A stretch of 64,000 bases of DNA from Candidatus Zixiibacteriota bacterium (GCA_022865345.1 JALHSU010000194.1:9249-73248), one strand, 5' to 3'. Counted from the first letter of the stretch, positions 5,490-25,145 are shown. Numbers and translations: made by a program. Notes: generated by a model from the sequence alone, not told the origin.

Positions 5490-5526
5490 AATAACGATCT
5501 TAAACCTGCCTAACCCTGTCATCAAG

Positions 5527-5558
5527 ACAAAAAAAGAGATGTTCTGCAGAACATCTCT
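5527..5558 (-). terminator. rho-independent terminator of metG
   Basis: Perfect hairpin agagatgttctg/cagaacatctct followed on the minus strand by TTTTTTTG, about 25 nt after the metG stop. Confidence 0.7.
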
Positions 5559-5583
5559 TTTAAAATCTCGATTTACCTGGGTC

Positions 5584-7542
5584 TTAACTTATCTTCGCCC
5601 CGGGTTTAACCTCTTTATCCACTGTTAATATGGTCAGATTTTCCCCGTCCTGAGCGGCAAGGAGCATCCCTTTTGATTCTATCCCTTTTATGCGAGCAGG
5701 TTTTAAATTGGCAAGAAGGATAATCTTCTTTCCGACCAGCTCCTCTGGCTTATAATATTCCGCAATTCCGGCGACTATTTCTCGATTTTCGTCCTCGAAT
5801 TCAACTTCAAGCTTTAAAAGCTTTTTTGCCCCTTCGACTTTTTCTGCTCCTATGACTTGAGCCACCCTTATATCCATTTTAGCGAAATCCTCAATAGTTA
5901 TTTCCATCTTCTCTTCTTTTGCAATTGAAACTTCAGATTTTTCTTTTGAGACCTCAGCCGGTTTTGCCTCTTTAAACCGAGGAAACAAGGGAACGATCTC
6001 CCGGATTTTCGTTCCGGGTTTTAAATAACCCCAGTCTTTTTCTCTTTCTAAATTCGGGATTATCTCATTTTGTGCTAACCCTAAAATCTCTCTTAACTTC
6101 TGACATTTCTCCGGCAGAGCAGGATAGAAAAGAAGACTGATAATCCTCAAGGTTTCTGCTGAGGCATAAAGAACCGTTCCCAATCGGGTTTTATCCTTTT
6201 CCTTGGCTAAATTCCAGGGAGCGGTCTTGTCCACATAGCGGTTGGTGAAGCGGACTAACTTCAGGACCTCATCAAGAGCCTGGTTGAGATTCAGCTCCTC
6301 GATTGAGTCAAAAACCACCTCGACTGTCTTCAGGGCTGAATTTTGCAGCTCCTTTTCATCCACAGAGTAATCCGAAGGCTTTGGAATCTCTCCGCGAAAA
6401 TGCTCCTTGATCAGCTTCAAAACCCGGCTGGCTAAATTGCCAAAATCGTTTGCTAAATCAGAATTATATTTCTCCTCTAATCTTTTCTCCTGAATGTCTC
6501 CATCCTGTCCGAAGGGAAAATGAGTCAAAAGGAGATAGCGGGTAGCATCACTGCCATACCTTTCTATCAGATAATAAGGGTCGATCACGTTGCCTAGAGA
6601 CTTCCCCATTTTTTGACCATTCACCGTGAAAAAACCGTGGATGAAAAGTATGTCTGGTGTTTTTTCTCCGAGCGCAATCAGCATCGCAGGCCAGTAGATG
6701 TTGTGGAATTTCAAAATGTCTTTACCTAAAAGATGTATAACTTTCCCCTCGGTCCACCATTTCTTGAATTCATCAGGATTATCCCCGTAACCGATAGCTG
6801 AAATATAATTTGGCAGAGCATCCACCCAGACATAGGTCTTCTGAGTAGTGTCGAAGGGCAAAGTTATCCCCCAGGTAACCTTTTCTCTCGAAATCGAAAA
6901 ATCCTCTAACTCCTGCTTGAAAAGCCCCAGGGTCTCTTTTTTCTTCTCCTCTGGCAAAATCCTTATTTTATCTTCTGTGATTAGTTTTTCGACCTGTGAC
7001 AGGTATGAGGAGAGCCTGAAAAAGTAGTTTTTCTCAGTTACCTTTTGCGGAGGTTTCAGATGATTGGGGCAAAGTCCGTTTACTAAATCTTTTTCGGTGA
7101 TGAATTTCTCGCAGCCCACGCAGTATAATCCAGTATATTCTCCAGGGTAAACTATCTTTTGACCTTTTTCATCTTTTGCTTGGTAAAGTATGTCCAGAAG
7201 TTTTTCAACTGCCTGAACGTGCCTTTCATCAGTGGTCCGCACGAAATAATCGAAGGATATATTCAGCTTTTCCCAGACCTCCTTGAAGCGTTGGCTATTT
7301 CTATCGCAAAACTCCTGCGGAGAGATTCCCGCCTGCTCGGCTGCCTCTGCTACCTTGCTGCCGTGCTCATCTGTTCCGGTCAAAAAGAAGGTCTCGTCCC
7401 CTTTGATGCGATGAAATCTGGTAAGGATATCAACCGCAACAGTGGGATAGGCGTGTCCGATATGCGGTTTATCGTTCACATAATATATGGGAGTGGTAAT
7501 AAAATATCTTCCTTTTTTGATCTGAGGCTTTAAGCCAGCCAA
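5584..7542 (-). CDS. metG: methionine--tRNA ligase with C-terminal tRNA-binding (EMAP/Trbp111-like) domain
   Basis: HIGH-type motif (PHIGHAY), KMSKS-type motif (KMGKSLGN) and a Zn-knuckle CxxC...CPNH. The C-terminal domain is of the ...GAEKVEGAKKLLKLEVEF... type. Confidence 0.92.
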   Translation of the reverse strand: MAGLKPQIKKGRYFITTPIYYVNDKPHIGHAYPTVAVDILTRFHRIKGDETFFLTGTDEHGSKVAEAAEQAGISPQEFCDRNSQRFKEVWEKLNISFDYFVRTTDERHVQAVEKLLDILYQAKDEKGQKIVYPGEYTGLYCVGCEKFITEKDLVNGLCPNHLKPPQKVTEKNYFFRLSSYLSQVEKLITEDKIRILPEEKKKETLGLFKQELEDFSISREKVTWGITLPFDTTQKTYVWVDALPNYISAIGYGDNPDEFKKWWTEGKVIHLLGKDILKFHNIYWPAMLIALGEKTPDILFIHGFFTVNGQKMGKSLGNVIDPYYLIERYGSDATRYLLLTHFPFGQDGDIQEKRLEEKYNSDLANDFGNLASRVLKLIKEHFRGEIPKPSDYSVDEKELQNSALKTVEVVFDSIEELNLNQALDEVLKLVRFTNRYVDKTAPWNLAKEKDKTRLGTVLYASAETLRIISLLFYPALPEKCQKLREILGLAQNEIIPNLEREKDWGYLKPGTKIREIVPLFPRFKEAKPAEVSKEKSEVSIAKEEKMEITIEDFAKMDIRVAQVIGAEKVEGAKKLLKLEVEFEDENREIVAGIAEYYKPEELVGKKIILLANLKPARIKGIESKGMLLAAQDGENLTILTVDKEVKPGAKIS

Positions 7543-15082: not shown

Positions 15083-15219
15083 GCTGATAACAGGTAACAT
15101 TGTTTTTACATTGAACGACCTAGGATTAAGTCAAAGACAGGCTGAAGTTTTAATCTTATTCTTCTTTTATGAATGTAAACTAAAGGGCAGATTAAAGAAC
15201 GATTAAACCCCAAAAAGCT

Positions 15220-16467
15220 CTAATCCTTCATCGACTCTAAGAACTTGGAGTTGTTTTTGGTTTTTCTTATCCTGTCAAGCAAGAACTCCATAGCCTCGAC
15301 TGAGTTCATCTCGTTTAGGAATCTCCTTAAAATCCAGATCTTGCTTAACTCCTCCTCAGACAGAAGCAGTTCTTCCTTACGGGTGCCAGAACGGTTGATA
15401 TCCATAGCCGGGAAGATCCTGCGGTCCTGCAGCCGGCGGTCTAAGACTATCTCCATATTTCCGGTTCCTTTGAACTCCTCGAAGATGACTTCATCCATCC
15501 GGCTGCCGGTCTCGATCAAGGCAGTAGCCATAATGGTGAGGCTCCCGCCCTCTTCGATATTCCGGGCTGCGCCAAAAAACCTTTTCGGTTTCTGCAGGGC
15601 GTTAGCATCCACTCCACCGGAGAGGATTTTTCCGCTGTGAGGAACAACTGCATTATGCGCCCGGGCTAAACGGGTGATACTGTCCAAAAGGATAACTACA
15701 TCCTGCTGGTGCTCCACCAGTCTTTTGGCTTTTTCTATCACCATATCTGCCACCTGCACGTGCCGATCTGCCGGCTCATCAAAGGTGGAACTGACCACCT
15801 CTCCTTTAACCGAACGCTTCATATCGGTGACCTCTTCTGGCCTTTCATCGATCAGAAGCACTATCAGCTTTATCTCCGGGTGGTTGGCGGTGACGCTGTT
15901 GGCGATCTTCTGCAGAAGGATAGTCTTTCCAGCCTTGGGAGGGGAGACAATCAAACCCCTCTGACCCTTTCCAACCGGACAGACCAGATCCATTATCCGC
16001 ATAGAGACTTCTTCGGTAGCGGTTTCCAGTTGAATCCTTTTTTCCGGATAAAGAGGTGTCAAGTTGTCAAATAAAACCTTATGTTTTGCCACCTCCGGGT
16101 TCTCGAAATTAACTGCCTCGATCTTCAAAAGGGCAAAATACCGCTCCGAATCCTTGGGAGGTCTCACCTGTCCGGAGATAGTATCCCCCTTCCTCAAATC
16201 GAACCTTTTTATCTGGGAAGGGGAAACGTAGATATCATCCGGGCCCGGAAGATAGTTATAATCCGGGGAACGCAGGAAACCATAACCCTCTGGCAAAATT
16301 TCCAGAACCCCTTCTGCGAAGATAAGTCCGTTTTTCTCAGTCTTTGCCTCTAAGATCTTGAATATTAGATCCTGTTTTCTCAAGCCCGCGCAGCCGGGGA
16401 TGTCTAACTCCTCCGCCAGTTTCAAAAGCTCCGACACGGTCTTGCTTTTAAGCTCAACTATATCCAT
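15220..16467 (-). CDS. rho: transcription termination factor Rho
   Basis: N-terminal Rho_N domain ([23 protein letters not shown]), cold-shock-like RNA-binding domain and a RecA-type ATPase with a Walker A variant (GKTILLQ). Confidence 0.92.
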
Positions 16468-16606
16468 AAATTCACCTCTTAAAATATGATTTGATTATAT
16501 ATTCCTTAGTTTTTGTCTAATTCTTTATCTAAACCTTCCAGGCAGATAAAAGAAGAGAGATCCTTTTCGATTCAAGCAGTCCGACTTAAAGCTGATCTTC
16601 TGACCT

Positions 16607-16993
16607 TTAGGCAACTGACCTGTTCTTTTTAAGTAGTCTGATTTTTTCTTTGATCTGTTTCACCTTTGCATCCCCCCATAATCTTTCTAACCCGTAGAAC
16701 TCCCTGGTTTCGTCTAAGAAGATATGCACCACCACGTCCACGTAATCTAAAAGTATCCACTTGGAATTCTGGTACCCCTCGGCATGCCAAGCTCTTATCC
16801 CCTTTTTCTTGAGGCTTTCAGTTATATGGTCCGCGATCGCCCTGGCCTGTAACTCCACCTCTGCAGAACAGACTAGGAAGTAATCGGTGATATCCGCCAC
16901 TTTCCTCAGGTCCAGAACCTTTATGTCTGCGGCTTTTTTCTCCAGGGCGTATCTGCCAATTAAATTTGCTAACCTCTGAGAAGAGATTTTCAA
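16607..16993 (-). CDS. rsfS: ribosomal silencing factor RsfS (Iojap family)
   Basis: ...DITDYFLVCSAEVELQARAIADHITESLKK...WILLDYVDVVVHIF... matches the RsfS family. Confidence 0.8.
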   Translation of the reverse strand: MKISSQRLANLIGRYALEKKAADIKVLDLRKVADITDYFLVCSAEVELQARAIADHITESLKKKGIRAWHAEGYQNSKWILLDYVDVVVHIFLDETREFYGLERLWGDAKVKQIKEKIRLLKKNRSVA

Positions 16994-17041
16994 CTTGAGC
17001 TTTTCTTCCTCCCTACGGGTCGTAAAGCTTTTATCGACCTT

Positions 17042-17539
17042 TTAATCTTTTAGTTTAAAAATCTTCTGATAATCCTGACCCAGGATCAGGGTATAGCCTA
17101 TGTTCAGATAATTGTTTTCCAGCTGCCGGGTGAGGATGTTTTTCTTCTTCAGACCGATTTTTTCACCGATCAGCAGGGCGGTTTTCTCCTCTCCCATCCT
17201 ATCCAGAAGAAGACTTTCCTTGACCAGGGAATCCGGCAAGTCTTTCTGTTCAACTATAACCAGATAATAGGGGCTGAAATTTTTTTTCTCCAGGAACTGG
17301 GCAAAACCAGGACTGATTCTTTTGCCTGAGGAGTTCAGCACTTGCACTCGCAAAGGATTCGTTCTCAGACTCCCCTCTGCTTGAGTCTGGGTTAACCTTT
17401 TGGCTGAAGAGAGAACAAATAATATTATCAATAAACCCAAAAAGGCTATACCCAGATCCACAAACCTTCCCCCCCGTTTTGCTTTGGACCTCTTGCGGTA
17501 AAAACGATACCTTTTATCCGCGCCTTTTCGCTTGAACAT
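17042..17539 (-). CDS. membrane-anchored protein with LytR/CpsA/Psr C-terminal (LytR_C)-like domain
   Basis: Basic N-terminus, one TM, then ...PLRVQVLNSSGKRISPGFAQFLEK...DLPDSLV..., which resembles LytR_C domains. Confidence 0.4.
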   Translation of the reverse strand: MFKRKGADKRYRFYRKRSKAKRGGRFVDLGIAFLGLLIILFVLSSAKRLTQTQAEGSLRTNPLRVQVLNSSGKRISPGFAQFLEKKNFSPYYLVIVEQKDLPDSLVKESLLLDRMGEEKTALLIGEKIGLKKKNILTRQLENNYLNIGYTLILGQDYQKIFKLKD

Positions 17540-17651
17540 AATTTTCGGGAATAAAGAAACTCAGCACTGCAGAAAATCTATCTGGAAATAAATTTTAGAT
17601 ATTTTAGTTTTAAAAAAGAAAAAACGTAAAATAGCTTCGATAACCTACCTC

Positions 17652-18074
17652 TTACCTGTACCAATATTCATACCACCCAGGCATACTAGAGACGTCTATC
17701 CTGAGCTGAAAGCTTTTGCTCGGCTGATAAAAGAGCTGAAAATTCGGCAGCAAAACACCGTTAAGGCTCTGGCTGCCTCGGTTGAAGACAGAAAGTGGCT
17801 GGTGCAGATAGGCCAGCCCTACCCTGACCAGCAAAGGCTGGGAGATTCTGTATTCTAAGGTATTAGTGTACAATCCGAAAGTCCCGCTCTGTTTGCCTGA
17901 GGAAAAAAACGAAAAAGTATAACTCTGGCTCATTTTCAACCGGCTCGGATCAAGCAGGCTGAACCCTTTTAATTTGACGGATGGCTCATTGACACTTTTA
18001 TCTTGCGCAAAGCCACTTTGAATTGACAATAATAGGATAGTAAGGATCAAGCTAAGATATATTATTTTTTTCAT
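17652..18074 (-). CDS. small secreted hypothetical protein
   Basis: 140 aa with a signal peptide (...SIQSGFAQ). Beta-rich and ends with the aromatic tail YEYWYR. Confidence 0.4.
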   Translation of the reverse strand: MKKIIYLSLILTILLLSIQSGFAQDKSVNEPSVKLKGFSLLDPSRLKMSQSYTFSFFSSGKQSGTFGLYTNTLEYRISQPLLVRVGLAYLHQPLSVFNRGSQSLNGVLLPNFQLFYQPSKSFQLRIDVSSMPGWYEYWYR

Positions 18075-18124
18075 CTTCCCCTCCTGCGCGAACAGGATTC
18101 AATATAACCTTATTCAACTTTTTG

Positions 18125-18901
18125 TCAAGCCTTATGTTCTACGCCAGATTTTAGTTTTGTGTTTGCCAGGTATTCTTCCATCTGCAAAAGCTCAGAAGTC
18201 GAGTTAACCCCTTTAGTCTCCCAGGGATTTTGAACTCTCAGGGCTTCAACCTTTTCTCCCCCTCTTTTTAATATCCCCAGCACATCGGTAATATAATATT
18301 CTTTTTGAAGATTATCCCTTTTTACTTTCTTTAGAGCGGAGAAGAGCGCTGGAGCAGAAAAGCACATCTCTCCAGTATTGATCTCCCTGATCTTTTTCTC
18401 CTCCGGGGTAGCATCTTTATCCTCTACTATCCTCTCGAAATCCCCATTTTTATTTCTGACAATCCGCCCATACCCTTTAGGGTCCTCTAAGACTGCTGTG
18501 AGGACTGTGGCTTTTGCTTTTTTCTGCTGATGGGTTTTCAGAAGTTCAATTACGGTTTCAGTTTGAAGCAGGGAGACATCTCCGCAGAGAACTAAGAGCT
18601 CTCCGTCGAAATCATGAAAAATAGGTTCCGCCTGCATAACCGCATGCCCGGTGCCCAGCTGCTCTTTCTGCCAGACAACCTCCACATCTTTCCCTTTCAC
18701 AAAATCGATTACTTTTTCCCCTTGATAACCAACCACCACTGCTACCCTTTTTAAATTTAGACTGAGAACTGTGTCCAGAACATACCCTATAAGAGGTTTT
18801 CCGCTTAAAGTGTGCAGAACCTTGGGGAGATCAGATTTCATCCTGACCCCCTTGCCAGCAGCTAAAATTATACAGGAGACCTTGTTTAAGTCAAGATTCA
18901 T
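18125..18901 (-). CDS. sugar-1-phosphate nucleotidyltransferase resembling the GlmU N-terminal uridyltransferase domain, without the LbH acetyltransferase half
   Basis: LAAGKGxRMKSDLPKVLH motif of GlmU/MobA-like nucleotidyltransferases. At 258 aa it has no hexapeptide-repeat domain. Confidence 0.65.
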   Translation of the reverse strand: MNLDLNKVSCIILAAGKGVRMKSDLPKVLHTLSGKPLIGYVLDTVLSLNLKRVAVVVGYQGEKVIDFVKGKDVEVVWQKEQLGTGHAVMQAEPIFHDFDGELLVLCGDVSLLQTETVIELLKTHQQKKAKATVLTAVLEDPKGYGRIVRNKNGDFERIVEDKDATPEEKKIREINTGEMCFSAPALFSALKKVKRDNLQKEYYITDVLGILKRGGEKVEALRVQNPWETKGVNSTSELLQMEEYLANTKLKSGVEHKA

Positions 18902-19252
18902 TTATTTTTGGGATTTATTATTCTTATCGACGTAAACTACCCTGGGCTTGAATTTTTCTGCCTCTTTCTTTTCCATCCAGGAATAGGAGATTACGATTAA
19001 AATATCTCCGATTTCGCCCAATCTCGCCGCAGGTCCATTCAGGCAGATTATCCCGGAATTCGATTTGCCTGGAATGACGTAAGTTTCAAACCTGGCTCCA
19101 TTATTGATGTTGACCACCTGAACTAACTCATAGGGTATCATATCCGCTTTCTTTAAAAGGGTCTGATCTACAGTTAGACTTCCCTCGTAGTTCAGATTTG
19201 CATCGGTAACTTTAACCCTATGGATTTTCGATTTACAAACCGCTATTAACAT
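18902..19252 (-). CDS. panD: aspartate 1-decarboxylase
   Basis: [29 protein letters not shown]... is the PanD family N-terminus, including the pyruvoyl-forming G-S site. Confidence 0.9.
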
Positions 19253-19269
19253 AAGATTCCTTTAAAAAT

Positions 19270-20118
19270 TTAGACACAGATCTTGAGATTATCGATTAAT
19301 CTGGTTTTACCAAATTTTACAGCTAAAGAGAGTAAAAGTTCCCCTTTAATTTTTCTAACCGGCTCAAGAGTCTGAGTATCAGTAAGTGCGATATAATCTA
19401 TTTTTGCCAGAGGCATTTGCTGTATCATCTCTGTCATCTTTTTTATTACCTTCAGGGGATTTTTTTCACCAGCCTTTATCATCTTTTCCCCCAACTTTAA
19501 AGACTGGTACAGGATTTTAGCCTGGTCTCTCTCCTCGGCATTAAGATAACTATTTCTGGAGGAACAGGCAAGCCCATCTTTTTCTCTTACAGTCGGACAT
19601 ACGATTATTTTCACAGGAAAGTTCAGGTCTTCTGTCATTTTTTTGATGATAAGTGCCTGCTGAGCATCCTTTTGACCGAATATGGCATAATCCGGTTGAA
19701 CAATATTAAATAACTTTGCTACAATAGTGCAGACCCCCTTGAAATGCCCGGGTCTGGATGCTCCTTCTAATTTCTTGGACAACTCTTCAACATTGACATA
19801 GGTGAGATACCCCTCTGGATAAATATCTTCCACTCTTGGAACGAAAATAAGGTCACATCCCGCTTGCTGGAGTAATTCCTTGTCTTTTCTTAAATCCCTC
19901 GGGTATTTTTTGTAATCCTCCTTAGGCTTAAACTGAGCAGGATTAACAAAAATACTGGCCACCACAAAATCCCCTAACTTTCTGGCTTTTTGAACCAGAC
20001 TCAAATGACCTTGATGCAAAGCCCCCATAGTCGGCACAAAGGAGATTTTCTTGCCCTTCTTTTTTAAGGAAAGTGCACATTCCTGCATTTTTTTAGGGGA
20101 GGAGATCAAGTGTATCAT
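19270..20118 (-). CDS. panC: pantoate--beta-alanine ligase
   Basis: PTMGALHQGHLSLV HIGH-type motif. The track ORF begins at 20181, but the extension overlaps the HepT remnant and looks unlikely, so M at 20118 is preferred. Confidence 0.85.
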   Translation of the reverse strand: MIHLISSPKKMQECALSLKKKGKKISFVPTMGALHQGHLSLVQKARKLGDFVVASIFVNPAQFKPKEDYKKYPRDLRKDKELLQQAGCDLIFVPRVEDIYPEGYLTYVNVEELSKKLEGASRPGHFKGVCTIVAKLFNIVQPDYAIFGQKDAQQALIIKKMTEDLNFPVKIIVCPTVREKDGLACSSRNSYLNAEERDQAKILYQSLKLGEKMIKAGEKNPLKVIKKMTEMIQQMPLAKIDYIALTDTQTLEPVRKIKGELLLSLAVKFGKTRLIDNLKICV

Positions 20119-20174
20119 TTTAAATTGGTTCCATAACTTCAATGAGTAGCGAGGAGATAGGTATGAGGGATAAA

Positions 20175-20384
20175 TCACCACTCGATTTGTGGATATCTCT
20201 GTTTTATTTCAGACGGAATGTTCTTGGTTGCTTCACCGATTATCTCCAGGTTCCTTATAACTGCGTCGATCAGCATCTGATTGCTGGTAAATTCCTCAAA
20301 CGACTTGCCCTTCACATACTCCAGAATTCTCTTGGCGCAATCCCGTATGTCGGTGATAAAGAGCACATAATCCCTTTTAGGCAT
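20175..20384 (-). pseudogene. hepT: HepT (DUF86) toxin remnant, C-terminally truncated before the Rx4HxY catalytic motif
   Basis: 69 aa matching the DUF86 N-terminal two-thirds (...SFEEFTSNQMLIDAVIRNLEIIGEATKNIPSEIKQRYPQIEW*). The stop falls directly after the conserved P-x-I-(P/E)-W. None of the three downstream frames continues the family sequence. Confidence 0.7.
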
Positions 20385-20688
20385 AAACCGCCTCCGATAA
20401 AATTCTACTTTTTATTTCATCTCTGATCGCAGTTTTAATAACCAGATCTACCTTTGACCCGATGATCTCCTCCAGGAAGAACTTCAGCTCCATATAACGG
20501 TCGAAAGTTTTATAGCCTGGCTCAAATTCAACCAGTATATCTACATCGCTTGACCTCTTCTGCTCTTCCCGAACGTAAGAACCAAAAACACCTATCTCTT
20601 TCATCTTGAATTTATTCCTTAGATCGGCATTATGCTTTTTCAAAATGCTAACCAATTCCTTTATGGATTTTGTTTTCTTGTTTCTCAT
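20377..20688 (-). CDS. mnt: MNT-type nucleotidyltransferase (cognate antitoxin of HepT)
   Basis: GVFGSYVREEQKRSSDVDILVEF is the minimal nucleotidyltransferase GS...D-x-D motif. It overlaps hepT by 8 bp. Confidence 0.75.
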   Translation of the reverse strand: MRNKKTKSIKELVSILKKHNADLRNKFKMKEIGVFGSYVREEQKRSSDVDILVEFEPGYKTFDRYMELKFFLEEIIGSKVDLVIKTAIRDEIKSRILSEAVYA

Positions 20689-20718
20689 CTTTCATCCTCC
20701 ATCAGATCTTATCAATTC

Positions 20719-21522
20719 TTAATAGCTCTCTTCTTCCGAAGGATATTTCTTAGTTTTGACATCATCTATAAAATTCTTGCACGCTTTTCTCATCTCTTTC
20801 GCCAGCTCTGTATATCTTCTCACAAATTTGGGTTTGAATTCCTCGTATAATCCTAAAATATCGTTGACCACCAGAACTTGTCCATCACAATCTATACCTG
20901 CGCCAATTCCGATGGTGGGAATTTTGAGGGTGGAGCTAATCTTTTTGGCAAGCTCTCTGGGGATACACTCTAAGACTATGGAAAAACAGCCTGCATCTTC
21001 TAATGCTTTGGCGCTTTCCAAAAGATATTCAGCTTTCTTCTCATCTTTTCCCTGCACTGAATAACCCCCGAATTTCTCAATCGACTGCGGGGTCATGCCA
21101 ATATGCCCCATCACCGGAATCCCAACCTCTATCAGCCTTTTTACAGTATCCTTCATCTCCAGACCACCCTCTATTTTGACTCCGTGCGCACCGCCCTCTT
21201 TCAAAAATCTTCCCGCATTCAAAATCGCATCCGAGACTGAAGTCTGATAGGATAAAAAAGGCATATCGCCTATTACCAGAGCTCTTTTTGCTGCTTTTGA
21301 TACCGCTTGTGTGTGATAAATCATCTGATCCATACTGATTGAAAGCGTATCCTTAGCCCCATAAAAGACCATATTGGCTGAATCACCCACCAGGATGGAA
21401 TCTATGCCGATATCATCTAAGATTTTAGCAGTGAAAAAATCGTAAGCAGTCAGAACCGCGATTTTCTCTCCTCTCTGCTTCATTTTGAGAAAAGTCTTGA
21501 CAGTCACTTTATCTTCTGGCAT
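20719..21522 (-). CDS. panB: 3-methyl-2-oxobutanoate hydroxymethyltransferase
   Basis: ...TAYDFFTAKILDDIGIDSILVGDSANMVFYG... is the PanB signature. Confidence 0.9.
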   Translation of the reverse strand: MPEDKVTVKTFLKMKQRGEKIAVLTAYDFFTAKILDDIGIDSILVGDSANMVFYGAKDTLSISMDQMIYHTQAVSKAAKRALVIGDMPFLSYQTSVSDAILNAGRFLKEGGAHGVKIEGGLEMKDTVKRLIEVGIPVMGHIGMTPQSIEKFGGYSVQGKDEKKAEYLLESAKALEDAGCFSIVLECIPRELAKKISSTLKIPTIGIGAGIDCDGQVLVVNDILGLYEEFKPKFVRRYTELAKEMRKACKNFIDDVKTKKYPSEEESY

Positions 21523-21534
21523 AAGAGTTAATCA

Positions 21535-22170
21535 CTAAGCTGCAGGCACATAATACCTGGTGCCTGGTTTTTCTTCTTTGACAATATTCACGAGGTCTTC
21601 AAATTGGCTGGGATTCTTTTGAAAATCCAGATTGTCATTTTTTACCACTAATAAATTACCTAAGTTATAATGGAAAAAGAAATGGTTATACGATTCCACT
21701 AAGAGTGAAATATATTCCAAATCTAAGCCTTTTTCAAAATCTCTTCCCTTTTCCTTTATCCTCTTTTGTAAAACCTCCGGACTGGTTTGCAAATATATCA
21801 CCAGATCAGGCCTGGGAATATCCTTTTCCAGAATAGGCAGGATCTTCTCATACAGATAAAGCTCCTTCTGGCTCAAGTTGATCGAGGCGAAGATCCGGTC
21901 CTTCCAGAAAAGGTAATCGCTTATCACCTTAGCATGGAAAAGGTCTAATTCCAGCAAACTTTGCTGCTGTTTGAACCTGGAAAGAAGGAAATAGACCTGG
22001 GTTTGAAAAGCAAACCTCTTCCGGTTTTTGTAAAAATCCAATAAGAAGGGGTTCTCCTCTATCTCCTCTAAAACCAGAGAAGCTCCAAACCTCTCAGCTA
22101 AAAGTTGTGCTAAGCCGGTCTTCCCAGCACCTATTGCTCCCTCCACTACTATGTAGTTTAAACCTGCCAT
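21535..22170 (-). CDS. deoxynucleoside kinase (dAK/dGK/dCK family)
   Basis: P-loop EGAIGAGKT and overall dNK-family layout. 211 aa. Confidence 0.7.
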   Translation of the reverse strand: MAGLNYIVVEGAIGAGKTGLAQLLAERFGASLVLEEIEENPFLLDFYKNRKRFAFQTQVYFLLSRFKQQQSLLELDLFHAKVISDYLFWKDRIFASINLSQKELYLYEKILPILEKDIPRPDLVIYLQTSPEVLQKRIKEKGRDFEKGLDLEYISLLVESYNHFFFHYNLGNLLVVKNDNLDFQKNPSQFEDLVNIVKEEKPGTRYYVPAA

Positions 22171-22658
22171 TTGACCTCAGATAATTTTACCTCCTGACCT
22201 GTCTTTATTTTTTGCAGAAACATCTTAGGAGTTAAATGCAGAGCCGGATGTTTCCATCTTGAACCCAGCTCGATCAACGGTATTAGGACAAATCTTCTTT
22301 TGTGCATCTGTGGATGAGGAAGCGTTAGCTTATCATCATTAATAACCATCTTGTCATAAAGGAGTATATCCAGATCTACTTTTCTCGGACCCCATCTTTT
22401 TCCTCTAACCCTGCCTAACTTCCTTTCTATCCCTTGAAGAAGATAAAGCAGAGATAAAGGCGGGAGTTTAGTCTTGATTTTAATTACCGCATTCAAAAAC
22501 CAGCTCTGATCCTTGAAACCAACCGGCTCAGTCTCATAGATAGAAGAGGTTTTAAGGACTTTAACCATTTTCAGATTCTTAATCTCTTTCAAAGCCTGGT
22601 TCAAGTTCCTTTTCTTATCTCCTAAATTTGAGCCCAGGCACAGATAAGCAATTGCCAA
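22158..22658 (-). CDS. folK: 2-amino-4-hydroxy-6-hydroxymethyldihydropteridine diphosphokinase
   Basis: MAIAYLCLGSNLGD...DLDILLYD is the HPPK signature. Confidence 0.85.
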   Translation of the reverse strand: MAIAYLCLGSNLGDKKRNLNQALKEIKNLKMVKVLKTSSIYETEPVGFKDQSWFLNAVIKIKTKLPPLSLLYLLQGIERKLGRVRGKRWGPRKVDLDILLYDKMVINDDKLTLPHPQMHKRRFVLIPLIELGSRWKHPALHLTPKMFLQKIKTGQEVKLSEVKWQV

Positions 22659-22732
22659 TTATCTTGCTCCTTTAATTTGATCTAACCTGATGTTCGGGTG
22701 GAGATAAACTCCACCTCTACGTGTCTTCTGTT

Positions 22733-23095
22733 TCAGACTTCCTTTCTTCTTTCTATCTCTACCTCGATATCATCTAAGTTTCCAGGAACCGGAGGTATCT
22801 TTTTCCTCACCCTGACCTTTACCAGGTCAGGTTTGAATTTAGTCAGGACCTCATCAGCTATCCGGCTGGCAACTGCTTCTATAAGGGAAAAACGCTCTCC
22901 GGTCATAATATCATGAACTGTCTGGTAAACTTCCTTATAATTGACAGTGTCTTTGAGTCTGTCGCTTTGCTCTGCTCTGGAAAGATCAAGGAAAAGCTCC
23001 AAATCCACCTCAAATCTCCTGCCAGTCTCCTTTTCCGCAGGTGAGACCCCGTGAAACCCGTAGAAGATCATATTGTGCAGTCTGATTATGCCCAT
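22733..23095 (-). CDS. folB: dihydroneopterin aldolase
   Basis: ...MIFYGFHGVSPAEKETGRRFEVDLEL... is of the FolB family. Confidence 0.85.
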   Translation of the reverse strand: MGIIRLHNMIFYGFHGVSPAEKETGRRFEVDLELFLDLSRAEQSDRLKDTVNYKEVYQTVHDIMTGERFSLIEAVASRIADEVLTKFKPDLVKVRVRKKIPPVPGNLDDIEVEIERRKEV

Positions 23096-23099
23096 ATCT

Positions 23100-24317
23100 T
23101 TAACTGCGGTATCTTTTTTGCCAGAAGTGGGAATGCTCTCTTATCCTTTCCCCTGCCTCTTTGAGTTTCTCCTCCGGCTGGTTCAAGCAGAGCCGGATAA
23201 ATCCCTCTCCCGGTCCTCCATATTCGATACCCGGAGAAGCTATCACCCCGGTCTTTCTCAAAAGCATCCGGCAAAACCCCAGGGAAGAATATCTTCCAGG
23301 TATTTGTGCCCAAAAAAAGGGAGTGGCTTTTGGTTTTCTTGCTCTCCAGCCCAGACTCAAGAGGAGCTCGGTCATCACATCTCTTCTAACTTTGTATTCC
23401 TGTTTGTTTCGGCTTATTATCGGGTCGTATTCTTCCAAAAGGACCTCAGCCAGTTTGAGCAGAAGCCGGTTGGGCTGGTGATTGAAAAGCCTGCTCTGGG
23501 ATTCCAGACCTGAGATCATCTCCTTATCACCCACTATAAAACCGCAATCTATGCCAGAGAGTCCCGTGCCTTTGGAAAGCGAATGCAGTTCCACTCCAAC
23601 CCTTCTTCCGCCTTCTGCCTGCATCAGGCTGGGGGGTCCGAAGTTGGATCCATAGGATTGAAACTCCTCAAAATAGATCTCATTGTAAGATGCATCCTGC
23701 ACTACTCTGATGTTATTTTTCAAAGCTACTTCTGCCAGCTCTTTATAGAAAAAAAGGTCGGCTAAGGAGCCTGTGGGGTTATGTGGATAATTTAAGAAGA
23801 AAAACTTCCTCTCGTCTTTGTTCTTATTCTTCAGAAGTCCCAGATTCGGCAGGTAATCATTCCTTTCTAACAGTGGAAGGACCTCTATCTCCCCTTCAGC
23901 TAAAAGTGCACAGCCTTTATAAAGCTGAGCCGCGGGCTCGCATACAAAAATCTTATCCTCTGGATTTATGAAAGAAAGCGCAAGCTGGGTCAGGGTTTCC
24001 CTTTTACCGGAGTAAAAGAAGATCTCGGTTTTAGGATTCAGCGAAACTCCATATCTTTTTTTAAACCAGAAAGAAAAAAGCTCTTTTACTTTGAAGATTT
24101 CCTCTTTCTCCGCATAGCCGAAGTTCTTCTTGTCCTGGAGAAAAGGCAAAATCTTCTGAACAGAGCCTGGTAATGGCAGGGCCGGATCGAATCGGCCTAA
24201 ATCGATTATCTCTACTCCCTTTTTATCCAGCCTTTTTAAAACCCGGTTGAAATCAAATAAAGGATAGGGCGGAACCTTCTCCAGTCTAACTGCTTTTTCG
24301 ATTAAGACTTTTCTCAT
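23100..24317 (-). CDS. PLP-dependent aminotransferase, class I/II
   Basis: 405 aa of fold-type I. The ...HSLSKGTGLSG... segment carries the putative PLP lysine. Confidence 0.6.
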   Translation of the reverse strand: MRKVLIEKAVRLEKVPPYPLFDFNRVLKRLDKKGVEIIDLGRFDPALPLPGSVQKILPFLQDKKNFGYAEKEEIFKVKELFSFWFKKRYGVSLNPKTEIFFYSGKRETLTQLALSFINPEDKIFVCEPAAQLYKGCALLAEGEIEVLPLLERNDYLPNLGLLKNKNKDERKFFFLNYPHNPTGSLADLFFYKELAEVALKNNIRVVQDASYNEIYFEEFQSYGSNFGPPSLMQAEGGRRVGVELHSLSKGTGLSGIDCGFIVGDKEMISGLESQSRLFNHQPNRLLLKLAEVLLEEYDPIISRNKQEYKVRRDVMTELLLSLGWRARKPKATPFFWAQIPGRYSSLGFCRMLLRKTGVIASPGIEYGGPGEGFIRLCLNQPEEKLKEAGERIREHSHFWQKRYRS

Positions 24318-24946
24318 ATCATTTTCAGCTTTTTTAACTTTTCTAAGGACTCATCAGAAAGTTCCTCAGACTTTCCCAAAATTTTACATAATAGATTGAT
24401 TTTAGCCAAATGCTCGACCATCTCCAGACGGTTGTAAGCTTCATATATATCTTTTCCTAAAGTCAAGACCCCATGATTCTCCAATAAAAAGGCATTATGC
24501 TTTTCTATAAACGGAGAAAGAGAGTTTGGCACTTCCTCAGTTGTCGGAGTGGCATAAGGTGTCAATGGGATCTTCCCCAAGAACATTATCACCTCAGGCA
24601 GCAGATTTTGGGATAAAGGTAAATGAGCGCAGGCAAAAGCCAAAGAATAAGGAGCATGGGCATGCACAGCCGCATTGATATCTTTTCTTTTTTGATAGAC
24701 GAATAACTGCATTCTAAGCTCAGAAGAAGGCTCTAAATTTCCGGAGACTTTCTTTCCTTTCAAGTCCACTACCACTAAGTCGTTATCTTTAAGAAACCCT
24801 TTGTTCTTGCCAGCAGGAGTGACCAGGATTCTATTCTCACCCAGCCGGATACTCATATTCCCTTCAGACGCCACCACATATCCTTTTTGATTCATCCTTT
24901 TCCCGATTTCGACTATTTCTTTCTTGGCTTTGAGAATAGAGTTCAT
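24314..24946 (-). CDS. class II aldolase/adducin-family protein
   Basis: ...GYVVASEGNMSIRL...AAVHAHAPYSLAFA is a class II aldolase signature with Zn-ligand histidines. Confidence 0.75.
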   Translation of the reverse strand: MNSILKAKKEIVEIGKRMNQKGYVVASEGNMSIRLGENRILVTPAGKNKGFLKDNDLVVVDLKGKKVSGNLEPSSELRMQLFVYQKRKDINAAVHAHAPYSLAFACAHLPLSQNLLPEVIMFLGKIPLTPYATPTTEEVPNSLSPFIEKHNAFLLENHGVLTLGKDIYEAYNRLEMVEHLAKINLLCKILGKSEELSDESLEKLKKLKMI

Positions 24947-25145
24947 AATTTTCCGGAGAGAATATTAAAGATTCGACTGCCCGAATTTTAGTCCACAGGA
25001 CAGAAAGATGATAATAGCTCCCTTTTTCTTAGTCAAGATAAATCTGATGAAGAAGTAGGGGCACGTTGCAACGTGCCCCCACGATCCCACTCAGAAAGCA
25101 GATTGCTTCGTAGTCTAAATGGACTCCTCGCAATATCAGATGATC

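Follow-up and report, generated by a model that had tools for sequence, protein, structure and literature searches.

A probable remnant of a disarmed HepT/MntA toxin-antitoxin cassette between panB and panC in Zixibacteria

In a 64,000-nt stretch of DNA from Candidatus Zixiibacteriota bacterium (GCA_022865345.1, JALHSU010000194.1:9249-73248; hereafter, the window), a MNT nucleotidyltransferase gene and a 69-amino-acid fragment of a HepT toxin lie between panB and panC. We think it likely that these two ORFs are what is left of a type VII toxin-antitoxin system that was recently disarmed, and that they sit at a hotspot for insertions. The locus is a degraded member of type VII, not a working one: relatives contain the intact cassette at the orthologous position, and the window carries a real mutation that removes essential residues of the toxin.

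The cassette within the pan operon

On the minus strand, the genes are in the order panB, MNT, the 69-aa HepT ORF, panC, panD. The features of the region are:

20719..21522, minus strand: panB (ketopantoate hydroxymethyltransferase), upstream of the cassette (PF02548, E=1.5e-116)
20689..20718, minus strand: panB-MNT spacer of 30 nt, with a Shine-Dalgarno sequence (GGAGGA) at 20700..20695, 6 nt ahead of the ATG of MNT
20377..20688, minus strand: MNT/MntA-type nucleotidyltransferase antitoxin gene, 103 aa, apparently intact (PF01909, E=6.8e-18)
20175..20384, minus strand: HepT N-terminal remnant, 69 aa plus a TGA stop (PF01934 HepT-like, E=3e-13)
20177..20178, minus strand: deletion junction, which falls between TGG of W69 (20180..20178) and the TGA stop (20177..20175)
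20119..20174, minus strand: pre-panC spacer of 56 nt; its homolog in relatives is the right inverted repeat and spacer of an element with a 23S-rRNA-IVS-protein gene, which occupies this site there
19270..20118, minus strand: panC (pantoate-beta-alanine ligase), with its true start at ATG 20118 (PF02569, E=5.5e-110)
18902..19252, minus strand: panD (aspartate 1-decarboxylase), downstream operon member (PF02261, E=4.1e-50)

The ORFs and the Pfam matches agree with a prediction made earlier from the sequence alone (the original prediction), which placed a 103-aa MNT protein with an intact GS...DxD motif between panB and panC. The MNT and HepT ORFs share 8 nt (ATGCCTAA). The original prediction also had the 5' end of panC abutting the HepT ORF, which was mistaken, since the upstream extension of panC to the GTG at 20181 is spurious. 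The GTG-extended panC ORF has 303 aa; because its Pfam match begins at residue 25 and the orthologs start at the equivalent of ATG 20118, we take that ATG as the start.

The genes on either side are co-oriented with the cassette. From 25058 down to 17033 on the minus strand, the string is aminotransferase, folB, folK (HPPK), deoxynucleoside kinase (dNK), panB, the MNT and truncated HepT genes, panC, panD, and sugar-nucleotidyltransferase. It is conserved throughout the clade, and its overlapping gene pairs are folK/dNK and MNT/HepT. The window as a whole contains no tRNA genes and no Rfam matches. Predictions give no terminator and no strong promoter in the panB-panC interval, and the panC and panD transcripts presumably read through the cassette.

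The 69-aa ORF covers positions 1-80 of the 120 positions of PF01934, and comparison to this HepT-like family profile confirms that the catalytic motif is missing. As had been predicted, the ORF stops after YPQIEW and before Rx4HxY. It ends with ...YPQIEW-TGA, at an invariant Trp that lies seven residues short of the motif; full-length relatives go on with KKIAGLRDMVIHQY, which contains Rx4HxY. The nearest database homologs of the 69-aa product have 112-119 aa, and in these proteins YPQIEW is followed by KKIAGLRDMVIHQYFG.D.EILWD.... W69, R76, H81, Y83, and W92 are invariant in the full-length relatives (alignments of 34 and 50 sequences). R76, H81, and Y83 fall in the deleted part of HepT, so the window's protein has no RX4HXY.

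The family profile matches the HepT of Shewanella oneidensis (PDB 5YEP, 6M6U, 6M6W, and 7BXO), and in the profile alignment W69, R76, H81, and Y83 correspond to L90, R97, H102, and Y104 of that protein. This HepT is reached by the family profile only: phmmer with a full-length HepT found no match among PDB sequences. We also considered the AlphaFold model (AF2) of P0002, a 117-aa relative that is 90% identical over the shared part. The model (pLDDT 88.7) has helices at 3-24, 36-54, 75-83, and 88-116, and its best fold matches in the PDB are chains of S. oneidensis HepT (TM ~0.68, probability 1.0). Of the four core HEPN helices, the 69-aa product keeps only two, alpha1 and alpha2. The catalytic helix and the long C-terminal helix are missing from it, and so are the catalytic Arg and His and the Tyr that accepts AMP. 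Because the Rx4H residues and the AMPylated Tyr are gone, the 69-aa peptide is neither an RNase toxin nor a substrate for the antitoxin, and we infer that toxicity has been lost. The ORF scores 24 bits against HepT_toxin (NF047751), below the cut-off of 60 for this NCBIfam equivalog; part of this shortfall is explained by the truncation.

The antitoxin gene is in better condition. The GSx10DxD motif is exact (G36 and S37, ten residues, then D48, V49, and D50), all 11 of the invariant columns in a 49-sequence family alignment are kept, and the protein is 100% identical to an NCBI protein from "candidate division Zixibacteria". It scores 46.3 bits against MntA_antitoxin (NF047752), another NCBIfam equivalog with a cut-off of 60, so we assign it to a distant subfamily. 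We considered if the change G41E might damage the enzyme, but we dropped this idea, as Asn and Asp are found at position 41 in relatives. MNT is probably still an active adenylyltransferase, with no cognate target left.

In the HepT/MntA system, which is defined by RX4HXY and GSX10DXD, Y104 takes three AMPs from MntA (Yao et al., PMC7641770). Type VII (class I) HepT/MntA systems include SO_3166/SO_3165 of S. oneidensis (PDB 5YEP and 6M6U; PMC7641770) and CL1_0071/0070 of Thermococcus cleftensis. As in these systems, the window has an MNT gene (PF01909) with GSX10DXD and, immediately downstream and in an overlapping frame, a HepT gene (DUF86/PF01934). The full-length relatives at this locus have Rx4HxY (R76, H81, and Y83), with Y83 comparable to Y82 of the T. 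cleftensis toxin, and the predicted fold of the full-length relative resembles S. oneidensis HepT. At 103 aa for MNT, and 114-117 aa for HepT in the intact relatives, the proteins do not reach the lengths of the Shewanella pair, and their scores under the equivalog cut-offs mark them as a distant subfamily of type VII. Unlike type VII systems, the window's toxin gene lacks codons 70 onward, and with them the RNase motif and the AMPylation site, and unlike stand-alone type VII cassettes, this one lies inside a biosynthetic operon. In the HEPN/MNT system of Aphanizomenon flos-aquae (PDB 7AE2, 7AE6, and 7AE8), a HEPN RNase is neutralized by MNT through AMPylation of a Tyr beside Rx4H. Its fold match to the full-length relative is weaker (TM ~0.6), the identity is lower (13-16%), the proteins are longer, and the window's copy lacks the relevant region altogether.

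The deletion and the panB 3' end

We searched for related loci by looking up exact proteins and by scanning GTDB species representatives with panB as the anchor. Four of the contigs (L006-L009) are from the window's own population. Another five (L001-L005) represent a sister lineage with 94.5% nucleotide identity over 8.7 kb and the same panB-MNT-HepT69-panC arrangement; its 69-aa ORF is 93% identical to the window's and has the same truncation. Intact cassettes are present at the same position, with fully syntenic flanks, in two other genomes. L015 (JAUYBY010000061.1; panB 94%) encodes panB, MNT103, an intact HepT114 (PF01934 at 6.3e-31, profile positions 1-119 of 120), a decayed IVS-protein gene remnant, and panC. 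L011 (GCA_040961595.1; panB 89%) encodes panB, MNT103, HepT117, and panC, and the TGA of HepT directly meets the pre-panC spacer. The cassette is absent from the site in L016 (panB 90%), L018, and L021. These intact and empty sites support the proposal of an insertion into the operon followed by decay of the cassette.

A neighbor-joining tree of the HPPK, dNK, and panB proteins has the topology (((L019,L015),(window,L001)),(L016,L011)), with the L017/L018/L020 clade outside. Given this tree and the state of each site, the cassette was gained once and lost in L016, or else it was later exchanged between lineages. Several of these relatives (L016, which is DATKKH010000152.1, and L017, L023, L028, and L029) have Zixibacteria-like synteny and panB proteins at 69-90% identity, yet are labelled Terriglobales or Ignavibacteria; these labels are probably taxonomic errors for metagenome-assembled genomes.

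The endpoints of the deletion can be mapped. The BLAST alignment of the window to L015 stops right behind the W69 codon and picks up again 309 nt later (L015 5346..5654 is missing). The two HSPs overlap by 6 nt, with GAGTGG at 20183..20178 of the window and GAGAGG in L015, which is a microhomology. Relative to L011, 144 nt (48 codons) are missing and the TGA of HepT is kept. The ancestor could thus have been similar to L011, with 144 nt lost and HepT's own TGA in use, or similar to L015 and L017, with 309 nt lost and the stop of the IVS-protein gene in use. (The IVS-protein gene of L017 ends with AGG-TGA, which resembles TGG-TGA in the window.) The 144- or 309-nt loss supports the original prediction that the toxin was truncated by deletion. 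As both the window's population and its sister have it, the deletion is a derived character that the two lineages share.

The 56 nt past the window's TGA align with a conserved pre-panC spacer, CCCTCATACC..CTCGCTACTCA..GGAACCAAT, which L001, L015, and L011 share with L016, a genome that has no cassette. L017 and L018 contain the repeat core, CCCTCATACC..CTCGCTACTCA, as well. Alignment of these 56 nt with L015, L011, L016, L017, and L018 found no HepT C-terminal sequence left. Since the sequence after the stop is the conserved spacer, the C-terminus of HepT was truly deleted, and the statement that no downstream frame continues the family holds. We also looked for a continuation of HepT in three frames past the stop. 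A tblastn alignment extended for 18 residues with only 4 identities, which we attribute to chance because the same DNA aligns with the pre-panC spacer in cassette-free genomes.

Between HepT and panC, L015 contains a decayed gene for a 23S-rRNA-IVS protein (a four-helix bundle) at 5525-5657. Its N-terminal part, MIKRFKDLEVW..., and its C-terminal part, ...IEEIARMLSGLIKSIRER, are in different frames. The remnant is flanked by inverted repeats, as is the intact gene in L017. The window keeps the right repeat only (20143..20170), and no further copy of the core motif of this repeat was found in the window.

Other insertions have occurred at the 3' end of panB. In L017 (CAZMZF010000002.1), the gene after panB is an intact 23S_rRNA_IVP (PF05635, 2.4e-36) with 35-nt inverted repeats on either side; next come a partial second copy of 23S_rRNA_IVP, a pair of PF05168 HEPN and MNT genes, and a DNA methyltransferase. 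Between the inserted units, the end of panB (its last 15-61 nt) is repeated four times (L017:4738-6431), and there is no panC within 4 kb past panB. In L010 (491-616), a copy of the panB 3' end (82-83% over ~66 nt) comes after a full-length HepT, which shares 90% identity with the fragment in the window. L016 (3930-4012) has only fragments of the left and right repeats, which look like a scar. We did not see a recombinase in the DNA that these loci cover. From these sequences, the 3' end of panB appears to behave as a recurrent integration site in this clade, with MNT-HepT as one of several passengers. The cassette also occurs elsewhere: L013 and L014 encode MNT and a HepT that is 83% identical in an unrelated context, a defense island with GmrSD, Fic, methyltransferases, and a second HEPN/MNT pair. 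This implies that the cassette is mobile.

The divergence of the region is patchy. Along 15208-23890 of the window relative to L001, and along 17033-25058 relative to L015, tracts with 97-100% identity alternate with tracts at 76-88% (150-nt windows), and in L008 and L009, which are recombinants, the window's cassette is joined to divergent alleles of panC and panD. These mosaics indicate that homologous recombination is frequent among these Zixibacteria populations. dS is 0.03-0.13 for the cassette versus 0.19-0.85 for the pan genes. We considered if the cassette might be younger than the split of its hosts and rejected this: low divergence is not special to the cassette (in L001 or L015), as the region is a recombination mosaic. 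Only for the cassette of L011 does dS (0.43-0.58 versus ~1.2) remain suggestive of a later exchange.

Short HepT ORFs, selection, and alternative explanations

Among the best 120 matches to the 69-aa product, six are short HepT ORFs (67-70 aa). Some of this clustering of lengths is an artefact of using a 69-aa query. The six are:

P0001, 69 aa: sister lineage, same deletion
P0088 (L095:2501-2830), 67 aa: TGG to TAG at the W69 codon; the remainder is in frame and intact, including Rx4HxY
P0021 (L098:1017-1370), 68 aa: TGG to TAG at the W69 codon; the remainder is in frame and intact, including Rx4HxY
P0101 (L106:44-390), 69 aa: TGA one codon after W69; the remainder is intact, including Rx4HxY
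P0089 (L107:736-1040), 70 aa: out-of-frame internal deletion; the Rx4 segment, including the Arg, is gone and HxY is kept
P0022 (L105, a 500-nt contig), the sixth short match: diverges after codon 48, from another breakpoint or a chimera

Only the sister lineage owes its short HepT to common descent with the window. MNT is intact upstream in L095, L098, and L107, and the L106 contig is too short to show it. As read from their sequences, P0088, P0021, P0101, and P0089 are independent knock-outs of the toxin, not a short subfamily. TGG is one transition away from a stop codon, and the Trp is just upstream of the catalytic motif, so that a stop there disarms the toxin; this plausibly explains why W69 recurs. 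The clustering of knock-outs at this Trp likely reflects both mutational opportunity and selection for the loss of toxicity. As for P0022, its 500-nt ENA contig (L105:250-500) joins the end of an L015-type MNT to the start of HepT, and diverges completely after codon 48 of HepT. Either the cassette was independently rearranged a second time, or the contig is an assembly chimera. When metagenomes were scanned with a conserved 20-mer, the scan found 6 contigs (1 already known and 5 with distant HepTs) and did not extend the distribution of the truncated allele.

To ask how the remnant has evolved, we compared the two truncated lineages (Nei-Gojobori). We obtained a dN/dS of 1.24 for HepT69, from 5 non-synonymous differences and 1 synonymous difference, and of 0.31 for MNT, from 5 and 4. 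In the same comparison, dN/dS is 0.06 for panB, 0.11 for panC, and 0.00 for panD. Between the intact cassettes of L015 and L011, dN/dS is 0.26 for codons 1-69 of HepT and 0.13 for MNT. We used L015 and L011 as outgroups to polarize the substitutions. The window's branch has G14S, V29M, G41E, and S95R in MNT and two synonymous changes, and the sister branch has I13M, L21Q, and K25Q in HepT69 and one synonymous change, in the MNT gene. None of the changes in MNT are at an invariant column, and I13 of HepT, which is altered in the sister lineage, is a nearly invariant position. In total, there have been ~7 non-synonymous and 3 synonymous changes since the truncation, which are counts too small for significance (p ~0.2 by a Fisher test against the intact-cassette comparison, a hand estimate). 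The ~7:3 pattern fits relaxed selection and is not statistically separable from weak constraint.

Given these data, is the short ORF a remnant at all? The window is part of a metagenome-assembled genome, so we checked if the truncation might be an artefact of assembly or sequencing, such as a collapsed repeat or a frameshift. The same 21-nt junction, ATCGAGTGGTGATTTATCCCT, is found in nine contigs (L001-L009, from JGI, ENA, and Logan), which come from different samples and from two diverged lineages, and the missing piece is 144 or 309 nt, not the 1-2 nt of a frameshift. Because nine independent assemblies have an identical junction, we regard an artefact as effectively excluded, and with it the frameshifted continuation that the original prediction had allowed for. 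The other possibility raised there was a minimal HepT, that is, a member of a naturally short and functional subfamily. P0021, P0088, P0101, and P0089 do end within 1-2 residues of the same position. But all four arose by different lesions, as nonsense or deletion alleles, with C-terminal coding sequence still readable downstream; at this locus, the closest relatives of the window have a full-length HepT; and a 69-aa protein would have only two of the four core helices, and neither the catalytic Arg nor the catalytic His. None of these four is a short functional homolog, and we consider a minimal variant very improbable.

Alternatively, a true remnant might have been kept for a function. MNT could be an orphan, anti-addiction antitoxin that AMPylates related HepTs, either from the genome or from incoming cassettes, and HepT69 could be its translationally coupled partner or a dominant-negative subunit. 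Some observations weigh against decay and for this idea: MNT retains GSx10DxD and every invariant residue, and both ORFs are open in two lineages (nine assemblies) that are ~5.5% diverged over the region. Related cassettes, with 83% identity in HepT, are mobile and are found in a defense island (L013), the panB site has repeatedly taken in HEPN/MNT cassettes (L017), and orphan antitoxins have been proposed to be anti-addiction modules (PMC7354431). However, the HepT fragment has been near neutral since its truncation (dN/dS 1.24), and in the sister lineage it was altered at conserved positions (I13M and L21Q). The window's MNT has four lineage-specific amino-acid changes versus two synonymous changes, and the 64-kb window does not contain a second HepT. 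Also, divergence is so low that intact ORFs are expected by chance; our hand estimate of the probability of no disruption under neutrality is ~0.15-0.25. The cassettes of the truncated lineages differ at just 12 of 511 nt (~2.3%), so that still-open ORFs are no evidence of function. We therefore view retention for a function as unlikely. A specific version, in which MNT, possibly with the 69-aa HepT hairpin, is kept as an immunity module against the HepTs of cassettes that integrate at the 3' end of panB, seems to us rather doubtful.

A disarmed remnant remains our preferred explanation, and it accords with the original suggestion of a toxin-disarmed cassette with its antitoxin kept: RX4HXY is deleted and MNT is intact. 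We propose that the cassette inserted directly past the stop codon of panB in the ancestor of this Zixibacteria clade. It would have been co-oriented with folB-folK-dNK-panB-panC-panD and was probably co-transcribed with them. A single deletion, in the ancestor that the window's lineage shares with its sister, would then have taken HepT from codon 70 to its end and put TGA directly behind Trp69. If the ancestor was similar to L015, the same deletion would also have taken the decayed remnant of the 23S-rRNA-IVS-protein gene 3' of HepT. Disarming may have been favored because the toxin lay inside an operon that must be transcribed. Since then, the MNT and HepT69 ORFs have most likely been in neutral drift, and they would still be open because the deletion is young (~2.3% difference between the truncated cassettes).

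Implications

This locus is an ordinary and well-documented kind of toxin-antitoxin decay. Degraded loci and orphan antitoxins are frequent, and the literature describes them well (reviewed in PMC7354431). As in those loci, an intact antitoxin lies beside an inactivated toxin, relatives have intact cassettes, and independent knock-outs are common. Unlike the degraded loci that have been reviewed, here the ancestral state, the empty site, the endpoints of the deletion, and the lesion as a shared derived character can all be reconstructed from relatives.

For annotation, we recommend "HepT pseudogene" or "HepT remnant" for the 69-aa ORF and "orphan MntA-type nucleotidyltransferase" for MNT; a label such as working toxin-antitoxin system or new short toxin would be wrong for either. 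Beyond annotation, the remnant itself matters little; the hotspot at the 3' end of panB and the recurrent knock-out of HepT at an invariant Trp may be of greater interest. If the immunity reading were true, the host would tolerate or exclude incoming HepT/MntA elements without having a toxin in an essential biosynthetic operon. The sister lineages form a clean natural series of decay, with empty, intact, and disarmed cassettes at one orthologous position, and this series could be used to ask if MntA outlives its toxin for a reason.
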